A stretch of DNA of 64,000 nucleotides from Candidatus Omnitrophota bacterium (lineage in GTDB: Bacteria; Omnitrophota; Gorgyraeia; JABMRG01). The position numbers and the translations under genes are program-made. Each line of letters starts with the position of its first letter. Position 1 is the first letter of the stretch. Positions 5,978 to 12,407 of the stretch are shown here, in pieces. The notes under the pieces were generated by a model. That model did not search any database. It worked only from the letters and a program-made list of their open reading frames with translations, and had not been told where the DNA came from. Location of the stretch: positions 145,965 to 209,964 of the forward strand of contig JAUVHV010000001.1 in assembly GCA_030593065.1 (NCBI GenBank), written 5' to 3'.

Positions 5978-6337
5978 ATGCCAGGTGGAGATAGAACAGG
6001 ACCCATGGGAATGGGGTCAATGACAGGCCGCGGAGCAGGTTACTGTGCCGGTTATCCTATGCCAGGTTATGCCAATTTTATTCCAGGCCAAGGCATGGGC
6101 TTTGGCCGTGGTTTTGGCAGGGGCCGCGGCTGGAGAAATAATAGGCTAAATTACGGGGCATTTCAGGGATATGCGTATCAAGCAGGGCGATATTACCAGG
6201 ATGCTAATGTTTCAGGGTTTACGTCACAGCAAGAAGCAGAGATGCTTAAAAAAGAAGCTAAGTTTATGCAGGATGAAATTAGTTCCATAAATCAGCGCAT
6301 AAGTGAATTAGAATCTTTGGATAAAAAAACTGAGTAA
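5978..6337 (+). CDS. DUF5320 family protein (Gly-rich with C-terminal coiled coil)
   Basis: N-terminal M-P-G-G-D-R-T-G-P hallmark of DUF5320, Gly/Arg-rich middle, coiled-coil tail. Start placed at the ATG 8 nt after the GGAGG RBS. The ORF track starts at the in-frame GTG 5969. Confidence 0.55.
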   Translation: MPGGDRTGPMGMGSMTGRGAGYCAGYPMPGYANFIPGQGMGFGRGFGRGRGWRNNRLNYGAFQGYAYQAGRYYQDANVSGFTSQQEAEMLKKEAKFMQDEISSINQRISELESLDKKTE

Positions 6338-6423
6338 GAAGCATCTATACTAAAGTTATAGTAGGTAAAAGGGGGATACTTTTACCTACTTATCGTATAT
6401 ATGTGTAAAAAAGGAGATTTTTT

Positions 6424-6822
6424 ATGAGGATAGCCATATCAACAGATGGTGATATGGTATCTGCTCATTTTGGCAGATGCCCATCTTTTACTATTGTAGA
6501 TATTGAAAACAACAAAGTTGCAAAGAAAGAGGTTATAGATAACCCCGGGCATCAGCCTGGCGCTATACCAAGATTTTTACATGAAAAAGGTGTTAATCGC
6601 ATTATTGCCGGTGGCATGGGTATGAATGCCGTGAATTTTTTTAATCAATTCAGCATAGAGGCAATGGTTGGTGTTACAGGTACGATAGATGATGTCATAG
6701 AAAAACTGGAAAAAGGAACTTTAAAAGGCGGTGAAAGCTTATGCAGTCCAGGCGCGGGAAAAGGTTACGGCGTAGAGAAGACAGCATGTGATAATCCTGA
6801 TAAAGAGGATTGTGGGCATTAA
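6424..6822 (+). CDS. NifX/NifB-type dinitrogenase FeMo-cofactor-binding domain protein
   Basis: MRIAISTDG...VSAHFGRC...FTIVD pattern of the Nitro_FeMo-Co (PF02579) fold. GGMG nucleotide-loop-like motif. Confidence 0.7.
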   Translation: MRIAISTDGDMVSAHFGRCPSFTIVDIENNKVAKKEVIDNPGHQPGAIPRFLHEKGVNRIIAGGMGMNAVNFFNQFSIEAMVGVTGTIDDVIEKLEKGTLKGGESLCSPGAGKGYGVEKTACDNPDKEDCGH

Positions 6823-6837
6823 TCAAAAGGAGGTTTT

Positions 6838-7212
6838 ATGAAGATTTGTGTTACTTCAGAAGGAGAGGCGCTGGATTCTAAAGTGGATCCTCGTTTTGGC
6901 AGATGTCAGTATTTTATTGTTGTCGATACCGATACATTGGCATTTGAGGCGGTACGGAATCCGAATATCGAATCTATGGGCGGGGCGGGGATTCAGTCAG
7001 GCCAACTTGTCGCGGAAAAACAAGTAAAGGCATTGATTACAGGTAATGTCGGGCCTAATGCTTTTCAGGCTTTGCAGGCAGCAAACATAGATGTGATTAC
7101 CGGGGTCTCAGGTACTGTTGAGGAAGCGGTAGAAGAGTATAAAAAAGGTGATTTAAAGCCTACAAGTGGCCCAAGCGTAAATTCAAAATTTGGCACACCA
7201 CCTCAAAATTAA
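6838..7212 (+). CDS. NifX/NifB-type dinitrogenase FeMo-cofactor-binding domain protein (paralogue)
   Basis: MKICVTSEGE...DPRFGRCQYFIVVD. Same fold signature as the preceding gene. Confidence 0.7.
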   Translation: MKICVTSEGEALDSKVDPRFGRCQYFIVVDTDTLAFEAVRNPNIESMGGAGIQSGQLVAEKQVKALITGNVGPNAFQALQAANIDVITGVSGTVEEAVEEYKKGDLKPTSGPSVNSKFGTPPQN

Positions 7213-7232
7213 TTTTAAAAGGAGAAGAAAAG

Positions 7233-7406
7233 ATGGTAGCAGAGATTGGTAAAGAAAAATGTACAGGGTGCAGCATCTGCATTGAAATATGCCCTGTAAA
7301 TGCGATAAAGATCGAGAATGGTAAAGCAGAAATAAGCGATGATTGTATAGAATGCGGTGTTTGTATAAATCAGTGTCCAAATGAAGCGATGTCGCTTCCA
7401 AAATAA
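7233..7406 (+). CDS. Small 2x[4Fe-4S] ferredoxin (57 aa), absent from the ORF track because it is under 60 aa
   Basis: ATG at 7233 preceded by AAGGAGAAG RBS. Translation MVAEIGKEKCTGCSICIEICPVNAIKIENGKAEISDDCIECGVCINQCPNEAMSLPK has two CxxCxxCxxxCP motifs. Stop TAA 7404-7406. Confidence 0.6.
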   Translation: MVAEIGKEKCTGCSICIEICPVNAIKIENGKAEISDDCIECGVCINQCPNEAMSLPK

Positions 7407-9913: not shown

Positions 9914-9926
9914 AGTGGAATAGCTT

Positions 9927-10787
9927 ATGAAACAGATCGTTATAATTAGCGGAAAAGGAGGAACGGGTAAGACTGTTATTACGGGAGCATTCGCGGCTTT
10001 AGCAAAGAATAAAGTTATGGCAGACTGCGATGTGGATGCCGCGGATTTGCATCTTTTGTTAAAACCCATTATTAAAGAGAGGCATGAATTTAGAAGTGGA
10101 AAGACCGCAAGGATTGAAAAAGAACTTTGTAAGCAATGCAGCAAATGCTTAAGTGTTTGCCGTTTTGACGCGATAAATGATGACCTTACCATAGATCCTA
10201 TCTCTTGTGAAGGCTGTGGTTTTTGCAGTCTTGTTTGCCCTGAAGCCGCGATTAAGATGGAGGAGAATATTTCAGGAGAATGGTTTATCTCTGATACCCG
10301 TTTTGGGCCTATGGTCCATGCAAAGCTTGGAGTAGCCCAAGAGAACTCAGGAAAACTGGTTTCATTAGTAAAAAATCAGGCAAAACAGCTCGCGGAGAAG
10401 AAAAATTGTGATTGGGTTATTATTGATGGCGCTCCGGGCATAGGCTGCCCTGTTATTGCCTCACTTTCAGGGATAGATTGCGCGATAGTGGTTACTGAGC
10501 CTACATTATCAGGCTTACACGATGCCAGCAGGGTGATTGATGTAACAAGGCATTTTAAGGTCAAGACAAAGCTTGTGATAAATAAGTATGATTTGAATAC
10601 TGATATGACTGAAAAAATAGAGAAATATTGCAAAGAAGGTAATGTAGAACTTATTGGTAAGATCAGATTTGACAAATCGGTAGTAGAAGCAATGGTGGAT
10701 GGAAAAACAGTAATTGAATATCAAGATGGAAAAATTAAGCATGAGATTGTCAGTATTTGGGAAGCTTTGAAAAAGAGACTTAAATAG
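9927..10787 (+). CDS. MinD/Mrp/CooC-family P-loop ATPase with 4Fe-4S ferredoxin domain (paralogue)
   Basis: SGKGGTGKTV Walker A. CKQCSKCLSVC and CEGCGFCSLVCP ferredoxin motifs. Confidence 0.75.
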   Translation: MKQIVIISGKGGTGKTVITGAFAALAKNKVMADCDVDAADLHLLLKPIIKERHEFRSGKTARIEKELCKQCSKCLSVCRFDAINDDLTIDPISCEGCGFCSLVCPEAAIKMEENISGEWFISDTRFGPMVHAKLGVAQENSGKLVSLVKNQAKQLAEKKNCDWVIIDGAPGIGCPVIASLSGIDCAIVVTEPTLSGLHDASRVIDVTRHFKVKTKLVINKYDLNTDMTEKIEKYCKEGNVELIGKIRFDKSVVEAMVDGKTVIEYQDGKIKHEIVSIWEALKKRLK

Positions 10788-10792
10788 CATAA

Positions 10793-11692
10793 ATGAGAAC
10801 TTATCTGGATTGCATACCATGTTTTTTTAAGCAGGCGCTTGAAGCCGCAAGAATCGCAGGTGCAAGCAAGCTCGGGCAAAAGAGGATACTAGATGAATTA
10901 GCAAAGGTTTTTCCGAAGTTTCCCTTGGCTTCTTCTCCGCCTGAAATGGGTAAGACCATTTATGATTTAGTCAAAAGAATGACTAAGAAGAGTGATCCTT
11001 ACGCAGAATTAAAAGCAAAAAGCAATAGACTTGCTTTAAATATTTATGATAAATTAAAAAATAAGGTAGATAATTCACGCAGCAGGTTATTGATGGCGGT
11101 TGAACTGGCTATTGCCGGTAATATAATTGATTATGGTGTTAAAAATTCCTTAAACGTTGATATGGAGTTATCAAAGATTTTAGATGAAGAGAACAGGTCT
11201 ATTAAAAAAGAGAGTAAGGCGATATTTGATTATAAAAGTTTCAAAGATGCCTTGAACAAATCTAATATGATACTTTACTTAGCTGATAATGCCGGAGAAA
11301 CAGTCTTTGACCGTATTCTGATCGAGGAGATTAAAAGGATTGATGAGAATAAGAATATTATCTATGCTGTGAAAGAGAAGCCTGTTATAAACGACGCTTT
11401 AATAAAAGACGCCCTTATCTGCGGTATAAGCAACATGGCAAAGGTAATATCTTCCGGTTCTGACGCTCCCGGGACAGTCCTCTCTTTATGCTCAAAGAGC
11501 TTTCTGGATTTGTATAATAAAGCGGATATGGTTATAAGCAAAGGCCAAGGGAATTTTGAAGCTTTATCAGGCTCCAGGAGAGCTGTATTTTTTCTCTTTA
11601 TGGCAAAGTGCCCTGTTATTGCCAAAGATGTTGGATGCGAAATCGGAGATATTATTCTGTCTTATTACCCGGAAAAAATAATCGAAAAATAA
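10793..11692 (+). CDS. DUF89 / ARMT1-like domain protein (damage-control phosphatase family)
   Basis: N-terminal TYLDCIPCF motif typical of DUF89. About 300 aa. Confidence 0.55.
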   Translation: MRTYLDCIPCFFKQALEAARIAGASKLGQKRILDELAKVFPKFPLASSPPEMGKTIYDLVKRMTKKSDPYAELKAKSNRLALNIYDKLKNKVDNSRSRLLMAVELAIAGNIIDYGVKNSLNVDMELSKILDEENRSIKKESKAIFDYKSFKDALNKSNMILYLADNAGETVFDRILIEEIKRIDENKNIIYAVKEKPVINDALIKDALICGISNMAKVISSGSDAPGTVLSLCSKSFLDLYNKADMVISKGQGNFEALSGSRRAVFFLFMAKCPVIAKDVGCEIGDIILSYYPEKIIEK

Positions 11693-11693
11693 T

Positions 11694-12407
11694 ATGAAGG
11701 TTGAAATCCTTTTTAATGACCAGGCTATAAACAGTACATTTTCAGATGGATGCGGATTTTCTTGTTTGGTTAACAATCATATTCTATTTGATACAGGAGG
11801 AAACCCTGAAAGCCTCTTTAATAATATAAAGATTATGGGTATCAATATTACCGGCATAGAGGCTATTGTTATTTCTCATGATCACTGGGATCATACAGAG
11901 GGGCTATGGGAAATACTGAAGATAAAAAAAGGGCTTAAGATTTACGCGTGCCCTCATTTTAGCCAAAAATTCAAAGATAAGGTCAAAGCTTTGCGCGGCA
12001 TTCTTATAGAACAGGATAAACCCGAGGAGATAACAAGGGGTATCTTTGTTACAGGAGAGATTTCGGGAGTTTACAAGGGTGAAAGTATGCCTGAACAATC
12101 GCTTGTTGTAAGAACAGAGCGGGGTTTTAGTGTAATAACAGGTTGTTCTCACCCCGGGATCATTAATATCCTGGAAAAGGTTAAATCTTTTTTTTCTTTA
12201 CAGGAGTTTTACTCTGTTTTTGGAGGGTTTCATCTGCATGATAAGAATGAAAATGATATAAATAATATAGTGGTAAAATTCAAAGAGATGAATGTGGAAA
12301 AAGCAGGCCCTACTCATTGTAGCGGTAAAACAACAGAGGAGATTTTTGCTAAGAAGTATATGAATAACTTTATTTCAGTAAGGGTAGGCCAAATTTTGAA
12401 TATTTGA
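11694..12407 (+). CDS. MBL-fold metallo-hydrolase
   Basis: HxHxDH zinc-binding motif (ISHDHWDHTEG). About 237 aa. Confidence 0.65.
   Translation: MKVEILFNDQAINSTFSDGCGFSCLVNNHILFDTGGNPESLFNNIKIMGINITGIEAIVISHDHWDHTEGLWEILKIKKGLKIYACPHFSQKFKDKVKALRGILIEQDKPEEITRGIFVTGEISGVYKGESMPEQSLVVRTERGFSVITGCSHPGIINILEKVKSFFSLQEFYSVFGGFHLHDKNENDINNIVVKFKEMNVEKAGPTHCSGKTTEEIFAKKYMNNFISVRVGQILNI

Follow-up and report, generated by a model that had tools for sequence, protein, structure and literature searches.

The 64,000-nucleotide stretch of a Candidatus Omnitrophota contig analyzed here (hereafter the window) carries at positions 5978 to 12407 a gene cluster whose membership in the ORP ("orange protein") complex family known from Desulfovibrio is well supported by predicted domain content. 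Our favored reading, which we hold to be moderately probable, is that the cluster is a single Fur-autoregulated operon encoding an extended, Omnitrophota-specific ORP-type complex for iron-responsive, ATP-driven assembly or trafficking of Fe-S or related metal-sulfide clusters. We infer this function from the anatomy of the cluster, its regulation, and its gene neighborhood. An earlier reading made from the sequence only had described a widespread but functionally unresolved Fe-S/cofactor cluster of anaerobes; the description holds, but the ORP name and its literature (PMC6345978, PMC8359166) had been missed. The ORP core itself is already known. Three features appear to be undescribed in the searchable literature: an ORP operon headed by fur and controlled by a Fur box, the splitting of MrpORP into separate genes, and the regular association of a flavoprotein resembling CoA-disulfide reductases (CoADR-like), a DUF89 protein, and an MBL hydrolase with ORP. 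Literature searches on DUF5320, COG1149/COG1433, 7DCK, or Omnitrophota in combination with ORP or Fur returned nothing relevant.

Five proteins make up the Desulfovibrio complex (Orp3, Orp4, Orp5, Orp8, and Orp9, also called MrpORP), and their co-purification has been reported (PMC6345978). Orp3 and Orp4 resemble each other, and both combine a pair of [4Fe-4S] ferredoxin motifs with an amphipathic C-terminal helix like that of MinD; Orp5 is small and homologous to a [2Fe-2S] protein; Orp8 is a homologue of the Mo-Cu-S orange protein; and Orp9, in which a Di-Nase domain is joined to an ATPase of the Mrp/NBP35 type, passes Fe-S clusters to Orp3-Orp4-Orp8 (PMC6345978). The core content of the window cluster comprises an Orp8-like NifX-fold protein, a second NifX-fold protein of the MrpORP type, two small DUF5320-type proteins, and two MinD-type ATPases with 2x[4Fe-4S] domains (Table 1). 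A scan with an alignment of ORP, one genome per species, returned 80 loci, mostly from Desulfobacterota, and nearly all of those long enough to judge had the order Orp8, MinD-ferredoxin, MinD-ferredoxin, NifX-fold protein. Several of these Desulfobacterota loci have open reading frames (ORFs) with the DUF5320 motif immediately upstream of Orp8, and the ORP architecture was verified by Pfam in the locus of a Desulfovibrio (L043). Directly downstream of the ORP core in that locus (Desulfovibrio sp. MES5), the gene at 13281 to 13991 encodes DUF134, a putative DNA-binding domain, fused to a NifX-fold domain, possibly a regulator with a cluster-binding sensor domain.

Two hallmarks of the D. vulgaris system are missing from the window. 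First, the MrpORP fusion is not there: only its Di-Nase part was found, as a free protein (6424 to 6822), and at least 30 related loci have Mrp as a gene of its own within the cluster. Second, the orp genes of D. vulgaris are under the control of sigma-54 and OrpR and respond to redox potential (PMC8359166), and no sigma-54 activator was found among the cluster neighbors or the other scanned ORFs of the window; the -24/-12 element was not searched for.

The ten co-directional genes of the sequence-only reading were all recovered on the plus strand and fill positions 5978 to 12407, but the overlapping stops and starts that it described were not, as intergenic gaps range from 1 to 86 bp. The sole overlap, of 4 bp (12797 to 12800), lies beyond this range, between the J-domain stop and the methyltransferase start. 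Its family names were borne out by Pfam, NCBIfam, and PDB sequence searches, from which all family labels here are taken, and no ORF turned out to belong to an unrelated family. Dozens of metagenome loci have the gene order of the window, as do contig L001 (94% identical) and the Omnitrophota genome L002 (71% identical). This is far more agreement than chance would produce. When metagenome contigs were scanned by protein, 80 related loci with 56 to 82% ATPase identity were obtained. Their host lineage is probably Omnitrophota. Source-named homologues of the first ATPase are nearly all Candidatus Omnitrophica/Omnitrophota, with 69 to 98% identity among the matches listed, and on this evidence alone an Omnitrophota source of the window is very probable. 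The counts of related loci in Table 1 were made after de-duplication, with 26, 16, or 34 loci evaluable depending on the gene, and presence means a strongly scoring homologue. An Rfam search of positions 4500 to 13700 found two tRNAs and nothing else.

The simplest reading of the region upstream is that fur is the predicted first gene of the ORP operon. The cluster had previously been called Fur-adjacent, which is correct as to position but understates the relationship, as fur heads the operon and its promoter bears a conserved Fur box. From fur to the ATG of the first DUF5320 gene there are 53 bp, without any terminator-like site. The best solved relatives of the regulator are Fur proteins (9IRE, E 5e-31), with PerR weaker, and overall it is nearer to Fur than to PerR or Zur; its score on the NCBIfam Fur equivalog is 130 bits, under the cut-off of 220. 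The motifs HHHHLVCxxC and CxxC are kept in all aligned Fur homologues. Since the Fur box directly follows the -10 hexamer, DNA-bound Fur should block its own gene and those downstream.

Comparison across loci yielded a lineage box consensus, TGATAATGGAAACCATTATCA, a 9-3-9 palindrome whose core, GATAATGGAAACCATTATC, agrees at 16 of 19 positions with the classical E. coli Fur box, GATAATGATAATCATTATC. A search for TGATAATGGAAACCATTATCA with up to 4 mismatches through 748 kb (the related metagenome loci plus L001 and L002) gave 30 matches, 26 of which lie at exactly this position before a fur gene of the same type. The remaining four comprise one before another type of fur, two between fur and the DUF5320 gene, and one before an unlabeled gene. 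In L124 and L126 the box reads TGATAATGATAATCATTGTCA, and L002, L090, L093, and L117 have a second, looser copy between fur and the DUF5320 gene. Across 22 distinct promoter contexts, TTGAC(A), a TATAAT-like hexamer at equal spacing, the box, and the ribosome-binding site are retained while the spacer varies freely, and we therefore regard the region as a clear phylogenetic footprint. The cross-locus comparison superseded an earlier interpretation of the operator as a 6-3-6 palindrome (TAATGG-AAA-CCATTA). An A/T-rich near-palindrome at about 12423 to 12443, before the J-domain gene, was considered as a second Fur box and rejected: it fails a 3-mismatch search, and just one of its halves matches.

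The two NifX-fold proteins are 31% identical to one another. The first matches the NCBIfam MrpORP model over its C-terminal domain only, with 95.7 bits against a cut-off of 450, and its PDB relatives are TM1816 and PH0822. Its residues H15, C19, H43, C107, and C122 are invariant or near-invariant and would be enough for a protein-ligated cluster; a [3Fe-4S]-like cluster has been reported in the homologous domain of MrpORP (PMC6345978). The second has D. gigas ORP (2WFB) as its best solved relative, with 47% identity over the full length, followed by MTH1175 (E 4e-18). It keeps Cys23, where D. gigas ORP has Ala. The first protein ends in a Cys-containing, acidic tail (pI 5.0), and the second is almost without a tail.

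The two MinD-type ATPases are 34% identical, and the eight ferredoxin Cys residues are invariant in each. They score 180 to 350 bits against the two genes that follow the ORP homologues in Desulfobacterota loci, and it was through these loci, not through the DVU2103/DVU2104 sequences, that the Orp3/Orp4 assignment was made. Each also keeps a Cys34 (DCD) and a Cys in PPGT(S/G)CPV, with C34 and C176 invariant in paralogue 1, where the two might together ligate a bridging cluster of the NifH kind. An AlphaFold2 model of the first ATPase (mean predicted local distance difference test score, pLDDT, 92.4) has as its nearest solved folds by Foldseek archaeal MinD, Cfd1, ApbC, the ATPase-type HypB, and FleN, with NifH and BchL lower; the ferredoxin insert was found in no solved structure. 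Both proteins end in helices of high hydrophobic moment, like the membrane-targeting sequence of MinD. Metagenome matches of 1050 to 1260 nt had suggested that the first ATPase gene contains an insertion of about 400 nt, which in all likelihood is an artefact: the ATPase ORFs score normally, and the tblastn pieces begin in the upstream ferredoxin gene, which resembles the ferredoxin insert of the ATPase.

The protein of the first DUF5320 gene has one invariant Cys (Cys26), an acidic C-terminal part, and a basic middle part rich in Gly, Arg, and aromatic residues (residues 4 to 80, 77 residues), with 21 Gly, 13 aromatic, and 8 basic residues and a pI of 10. The second, Cys-rich protein has only the N-terminal motif in common with it (12 of 14 identities by BLASTP) and is sub-threshold for Pfam DUF5320 (E 0.3); it was recognized by a hidden Markov model (HMM) of the motif, built from other loci and run against 14,114 ORFs. 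Invariant in it are C46, C48, C51, H57, C63, C68, and C71 (numbered from the GTG at 7416). The sequence-only reading had remarked on a duplicated DUF5320, one copy with a Zn ribbon, as unusual. There are indeed two genes, but such a pair is normal for ORP (orp5 and orp7 in D. vulgaris), and the predicted site of six Cys and one His may equally well be an Fe-S site as a Zn ribbon. Maiti et al. in 2016 reportedly found a [2Fe-2S] cluster in a small, Cys-rich product of the D. alaskensis ORP operon. We infer that the two DUF5320-type proteins are equivalent to DVU2105 and DVU2107. In the gap that follows the first DUF5320 gene, L001 preserves the stem-loop through a compensatory T-A to C-G change. 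This hairpin is not a canonical terminator, as no T-run follows the stem, and it may be a processing or stability element.

These proteins share a motif with the N-terminal extension of Fur (residues 1 to 37 of the window protein, 5409 to 5520; also noted in L089, 505 to 975). A Fur homology search gave 2140 proteins, and the members examined carry the extension, with the consensus MP[RG][RG][DN]GTGPPWWHGRFRGCGYR. Over the first nine residues this consensus agrees with the N-terminal hallmark of DUF5320 (MP..DGTGP), although in the window's own Fur the motif is broken by an insertion (MPRWDTMHDLPTGGQAGGRHGRGP...). Outside the DUF5320 type, only Fur proteins matched the first ten positions of the motif HMM (best E 0.014 among the 14,114 ORFs, over the first ~10 residues only), and the motif is short, so that support for common ground is modest. 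A true DUF5320 domain in Fur was considered and rejected: the extension reaches E 0.06 to 0.12 against Pfam DUF5320, at profile positions 1 to 21, and none of the 120 Fur homologues listed has a precomputed PF17253 match. As judged from these matches, the likeness is a common 9-residue motif and not domain membership. The Cys of the extension is unlikely to be an obligatory cluster ligand because some homologues have G, R, A, or F instead. The extension could be a DNA-contacting arm or a common docking peptide. We speculate, as a long shot, that the motif serves the NifX-fold/MinD-ferredoxin machine as a docking or hand-over peptide, that Fur, as a partner-switch or cluster-sensing regulator, reads the loading of this machine in addition to free Fe(II), and that ORP provides a cysteine-desulfurase-independent, iron-regulated route to Fe-S clusters from iron and (per)sulfide. 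If this were true, the "orange protein" complex would gain a function.

Around this core are accessory genes. The ferredoxin has all eight Cys invariant, and its gene is present in 7 of 26 related loci. The best PDB match of the flavoprotein is the CoA-persulfide reductase 8A56 (E 1e-53), with whose active-site CGLPY motif its invariant Cys45 (CGIPY) aligns, and it scores 220 to 223 bits on NCBIfam equivalogs with cut-offs of 458 to 579. The DUF89 protein matches PF01937 with 232.7 bits and PH1575 (2G8L) with E 1e-42, with conserved LaDNaGE and KGQGNfEaL motifs; on the NCBIfam equivalog it reaches 184 bits, under the cut-off of 440. No terminator-like site separates the MBL and J-domain genes, and the J-domain/methyltransferase pair recurs beside the cluster in relatives. 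On our reading the operon begins with the promoter at 5345 and extends at least as far as 12407; given these two observations, it probably takes in the two further genes up to 13420. A radical-SAM gene detached by about 21 kb is the orthologue of the one located within the cluster in many relatives, such as L002 (13737 to 14516), and its membership in the ORP unit is tentative. Directly after it is a gene for a thioredoxin-reductase-like flavoprotein (34243 to 35181).

Among relatives, the clusters less often add the small ferredoxin, the J-domain protein, and the methyltransferase, and they also hold an Mrp/ApbC-type ATPase with a CPxC motif, a protein like S-adenosylmethionine (SAM) decarboxylase, extra methyltransferases, and thioredoxin. 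Between the Orp8-like and ATPase genes, L002 (8356 to 8607), L144, and L154 have a gene for a ferritin-like protein of the encapsulin-associated type (TIGR04535, E 2e-28); no encapsulin shell gene was found in the stretch examined around these genes. Three loci encode a membrane protein like cation-diffusion-facilitator (CDF) transporters, fused to a C-terminal NifX-fold domain (L096 8174 to 9699, L090 12884 to 14439, and L093 1124 to 2642), each gene preceded by one for a small Cys-rich DUF5320-like protein. The pair lies just downstream of the cluster MBL gene in L090 and L096 and upstream of fur in L093.

Table 1. Predicted features of the fur-ORP region in the window, with the occurrence of corresponding genes in related loci.
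Feature	Position	Strand	Evidence	Related loci
Sigma-70-type promoter of the fur-ORP operon, TTGACA-17-TATATT	5345..5373	+	11/12 consensus positions	
Fur box TAGTAATGGAAACCATTATCA, directly after the -10 hexamer	5373..5393	.	21-bp palindrome; sole match in the window, 0 expected by chance	
Fur-family repressor, N-terminal extension (...GP.WWHGRFxGCGYR)	5409..5924	+	PF01475, E 1e-34	15/26 (fur upstream)
DUF5320 protein (Orp5/Orp7 type), N-terminus MPGGDRTGP	5978..6337	+	PF17253, E 4e-28	24/26
Stem-loop, 11-bp perfect stem, intergenic (86 bp) from the DUF5320 gene to the first NifX-fold gene	6360..6390	+	-19.7 kcal/mol, z = -2.85	
NifX-fold ("Di-Nase") protein, MrpORP C-terminal-domain type	6424..6822	+	PF02579, E 1e-23; NCBIfam MrpORP positions 265-360, E 3e-27	
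Orp8-like NifX-fold protein	6838..7212	+	PF02579, E 1e-26; D. gigas ORP 2WFB, E 6e-23	25/26
2x[4Fe-4S] ferredoxin, 57 residues	7233..7406	+	Pfam Fer4 families	
Small Cys-rich protein, DUF5320 N-terminal motif, Gly/Arg-rich linker	7425..7652	+	75 residues; motif HMM, E 4e-8	18/26
MinD-type P-loop ATPase, inserted 2x[4Fe-4S] domain, paralogue 1 (Orp3/Orp4 type)	7654..8508	+	Pfam CbiA, ParA, Fer4	
FAD/NAD(P)H flavoprotein, CoA-disulfide/CoA-persulfide reductase/NADH oxidase group	8567..9913	+	Pyr_redox_2, E 2e-56	9/16; directly after first ATPase in 15/34
MinD-type P-loop ATPase, inserted 2x[4Fe-4S] domain, paralogue 2	9927..10787	+	P-loop and Fer4	16/16
DUF89/ARMT1-type metal-dependent phosphatase (subfamily I type)	10793..11692	+	PF01937, E 8e-69	12/16
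MBL-fold metallo-hydrolase, TM1679/7DCK type, COG1237-like	11694..12407	+	intact HxHxDH	11/16
J-domain protein, 105 residues	12483..12800	+	PF00226, E 2e-13	
SAM-dependent methyltransferase, start overlapping J-domain stop by 4 bp	12797..13420	+		pair with DnaJ gene in relatives
Radical-SAM protein, gene detached ~21 kb from the cluster	33455..34228	+	296 bits to L002 cluster radical-SAM	8/16 (in cluster, MoaA-like)
DUF169				6/16

How such a complex might work can be sketched as follows. Iron is the usual co-repressor of Fur, and its role as the signal here is predicted from family membership. When iron is scarce, Fur would leave its box and the operon would be transcribed. The E. coli suf operon, which encodes an ATPase-containing Fe-S machine, is likewise repressed by Fur and induced under iron limitation, and this parallel, with derepression at low iron, argues against a pure storage role. 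The NifX-fold proteins would serve as carriers or scaffolds of Fe-S or related anionic metal-sulfide clusters, and the DUF5320 proteins might contribute Cys ligands and basic flexible segments for cluster binding or hand-over. The two ATPases could form a nucleotide-dependent dimer whose own [4Fe-4S] centers serve to load, reduce, or deliver clusters, much as Mrp/NBP35 carriers act or as NifH does in maturing cofactors. Electrons from NAD(P)H, or persulfide-derived sulfide, would come by way of the ferredoxin and the CoADR-like flavoprotein. In the ISC (iron-sulfur cluster) system, HscB brings Hsp70 to IscU, and the J-domain protein may recruit Hsp70 in the same way. The Mrp/ApbC, encapsulated-ferritin-like, CDF::NifX, and thioredoxin genes in relatives' clusters share an iron/sulfur theme, which we count in favor of this reading.

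Several points weigh against the proposed function. No Mrp/ApbC gene was found anywhere in the 64-kb window. The model has no explanation for the conserved Fur extension and no place for the DUF89, MBL, and methyltransferase genes. The promoter call derives solely from consensus matching and conservation, and Fur-family proteins can sense signals besides Fe(II). In Desulfovibrio itself, where control is by redox through sigma-54 and OrpR (PMC8359166), the physiological role of ORP is unsettled; moreover, D. gigas ORP was isolated with a Mo-Cu-S and not an Fe-S cluster, and Desulfovibrio ORP was linked to cell division.

An alternative for part of the cluster is that DUF89, MBL, J-domain, and methyltransferase are unrelated housekeeping genes that merely share the ORP transcript, which we consider unlikely but worth taking seriously. 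Their order and presence vary in relatives, where genes for DUF169, radical-SAM, deformylase, and additional methyltransferase proteins can be inserted, and they have no known functional tie to metal clusters. None of the 80 mostly Desulfobacterota loci has DUF89 next to the ORP core, MBL occurs there only occasionally, and for the flavoprotein no orthologue was found there, only distant relatives of 110 to 150 bits. Measured against those loci, the association of DUF89 and MBL is as unusual as the sequence-only reading had held; among relatives it is the rule, since 12 (DUF89) and 11 (MBL) of the 16 evaluable loci, with 58 to 82% ATPase identity, have the gene within 8.5 kb of the ATPase pair on the downstream side. 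In the window, gaps of just 1 to 5 bp link the genes for the second ATPase, DUF89, and MBL. These two observations speak against chance company on a transcript.

It is also conceivable, although we regard it as improbable, that the NifX-fold and DUF5320 proteins store or detoxify iron sulfide, as thioferrate like that of IssA, or thiometallates (Mo/W-Cu-S, as in D. gigas ORP), rather than assembling and delivering clusters. IssA is a thioferrate iron-sulfur storage protein of Pyrococcus furiosus, and its tail has been suggested to envelop anionic thioferrate (PMC5524996). MTH1175, a match of the Orp8-like protein, is placed in the IssA clade by the same study, and the basic part of DUF5320 resembles the IssA tail, though on a separate polypeptide (PMC5524996); some related clusters also contain the encapsulated-ferritin-like gene. 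A cationic tail, as expected of an IssA-type protein, is on neither NifX-fold protein, however, and a passive store needs no two ATPases, ferredoxin, and reductase. The Fur box predicts expression at low iron, whereas IssA is produced under an abundance of iron and sulfide (PMC5524996), and the cluster contains no gene connected with Mo, W, or Cu.

A further alternative, the one originally put forward for the Desulfovibrio complex, is that the cluster encodes a MinD-like positioning or cell-division system in which metal clusters are merely redox sensors or structural. Archaeal MinD is the closest fold to the ATPase model, the C-terminal helices have a high hydrophobic moment, and the literature proposes a role in division, with a MinD-like helix in Orp3/Orp4 and polar localization of MrpORP (PMC6345978, PMC3897727). 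The fold likeness to Cfd1, ApbC, and HypB is, however, as strong as that to MinD, and no cell-division genes lie in or beside the cluster. Linkage to fur and a Fur box and to Mrp/ApbC, ferritin-like, CDF::NifX, persulfide-reductase-like, and ferredoxin genes fits metal handling better, and we judge a positioning system decidedly improbable.

Least credible, to the point of being very nearly discounted, is a nitrogenase-type cofactor maturation module (NifX/NafY/NifB-like) serving a nitrogenase or nitrogenase-like enzyme encoded elsewhere: the PF02579 fold is common to NifX, NafY, and NifB, the ATPases are distantly related to NifH/BchL, and a MoaA-like radical-SAM gene is found in related clusters and at 33455 to 34228 of the window, but the NCBIfam nifX model gives only E 0.0085 and 16.5 bits against a cut-off of 112, no nifHDK, nifEN, or nifB gene was found among the scanned window ORFs or in the L001 and L002 gene maps, and the same core is widespread in non-diazotrophic anaerobes as the ORP cluster. 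Nitrogen fixation itself is ruled out by the sub-threshold nifX scores and the lack of nif structural or scaffold genes among the scanned ORFs, in agreement with the sequence-only reading.

Other features of the window lie outside the ORP region. Upstream, a seryl-tRNA synthetase gene (2645 to 3937) is accompanied by two tRNA-Ser genes within 1.4 kb (tga, 4679 to 4768; cga, 5223 to 5311), which flank a GNAT acetyltransferase gene. Downstream, a fused aminodeoxychorismate synthase/lyase gene of pabB-pabC type (14434 to 16257) sits between two DUF3108 genes (13535 to 14416 and 16295 to 17137), an arrangement also found in L001. An apparent integrated mobile element in the stretch from 17168 to 24491 adjoins tRNA-Ser(gga) at 17168 to 17258 and encodes a Rep ORF2/G2P-like protein (17402 to 17956), a D12-class adenine methyltransferase (21125 to 21985), a serine recombinase (22196 to 22984), a tyrosine integrase (23400 to 24491), and several ORFs without a family. 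Farther along, a giant ORF of 2953 residues (49990 to 58851), with no Pfam match at E 1e-5, lies downstream of genes for type IV pili or a type II secretion system (T2SS), including a T2SSE ATPase (37050 to 38735), T2SSF (40831 to 42099), and PilM/PilN (45459 to 47108).

ORP is widespread in strict anaerobes, yet its role is unsettled even though the orange protein has been studied for two decades and the complex for about fifteen years, with proposals so far covering cell division, Mo-Cu chemistry, and Fe-S maturation. An ORP operon headed by fur gives a testable prediction, namely, that ORP expression is iron responsive and that the complex handles iron-sulfur species. The locus also defines a Fur subfamily with an unexplained N-terminal extension in the members examined, and it ties DUF89 and a COG1237-like MBL hydrolase to a metal-cluster system.

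Compared with known systems, the predicted operon is closest to the Desulfovibrio ORP cluster, with which it has in common the Orp8-like protein, the ATPase pair, two DUF5320-type proteins, a NifX domain of the MrpORP type, and the core order of the Desulfobacterota loci. In place of the MrpORP fusion there is a free NifX-fold protein, many relatives have the Mrp ATPase as a separate gene, and the operon adds the ferredoxin, the CoADR-like flavoprotein between the ATPase genes, DUF89, MBL, the J-domain protein, and the methyltransferase. Regulation differs as well: D. vulgaris uses the sigma-54 activator OrpR and IHF (integration host factor), whereas here Fur and a Fur box would act on a predicted sigma-70-type promoter. 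With the Mrp/NBP35/ApbC/Cfd1 carriers, the window ATPases share the SIMIBI P-loop fold and a deviant Walker A motif (GKGGTGKT), but they have the ferredoxin insert and lack the C-terminal CxxC bridging motif. The flavoprotein resembles CoA-disulfide/persulfide reductases in its Pyr_redox_2 and dimerization domains and its active-site Cys motif. It differs from them in its 448-residue length without a rhodanese-like C-terminal extension (the longer PDB matches have 551 to 588 residues) and in extra Cys residues kept in its family, Cys42 in 75% of orthologues and Cys279 in all. In common with IssA are the NifX-like (IPR003731) domain and a basic Gly/Arg/aromatic-rich region available in the system, although this region is on separate DUF5320 proteins and not in a C-terminal tail, and the predicted iron regulation is opposite. 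The likeness to E. coli suf is one of regulation only: in both, the promoter in front of the genes for an ATPase-containing cluster machine bears a Fur box. The window operon has no homology to SufABCDSE and no cysteine desulfurase, and its first gene is fur, which would make it autoregulated.

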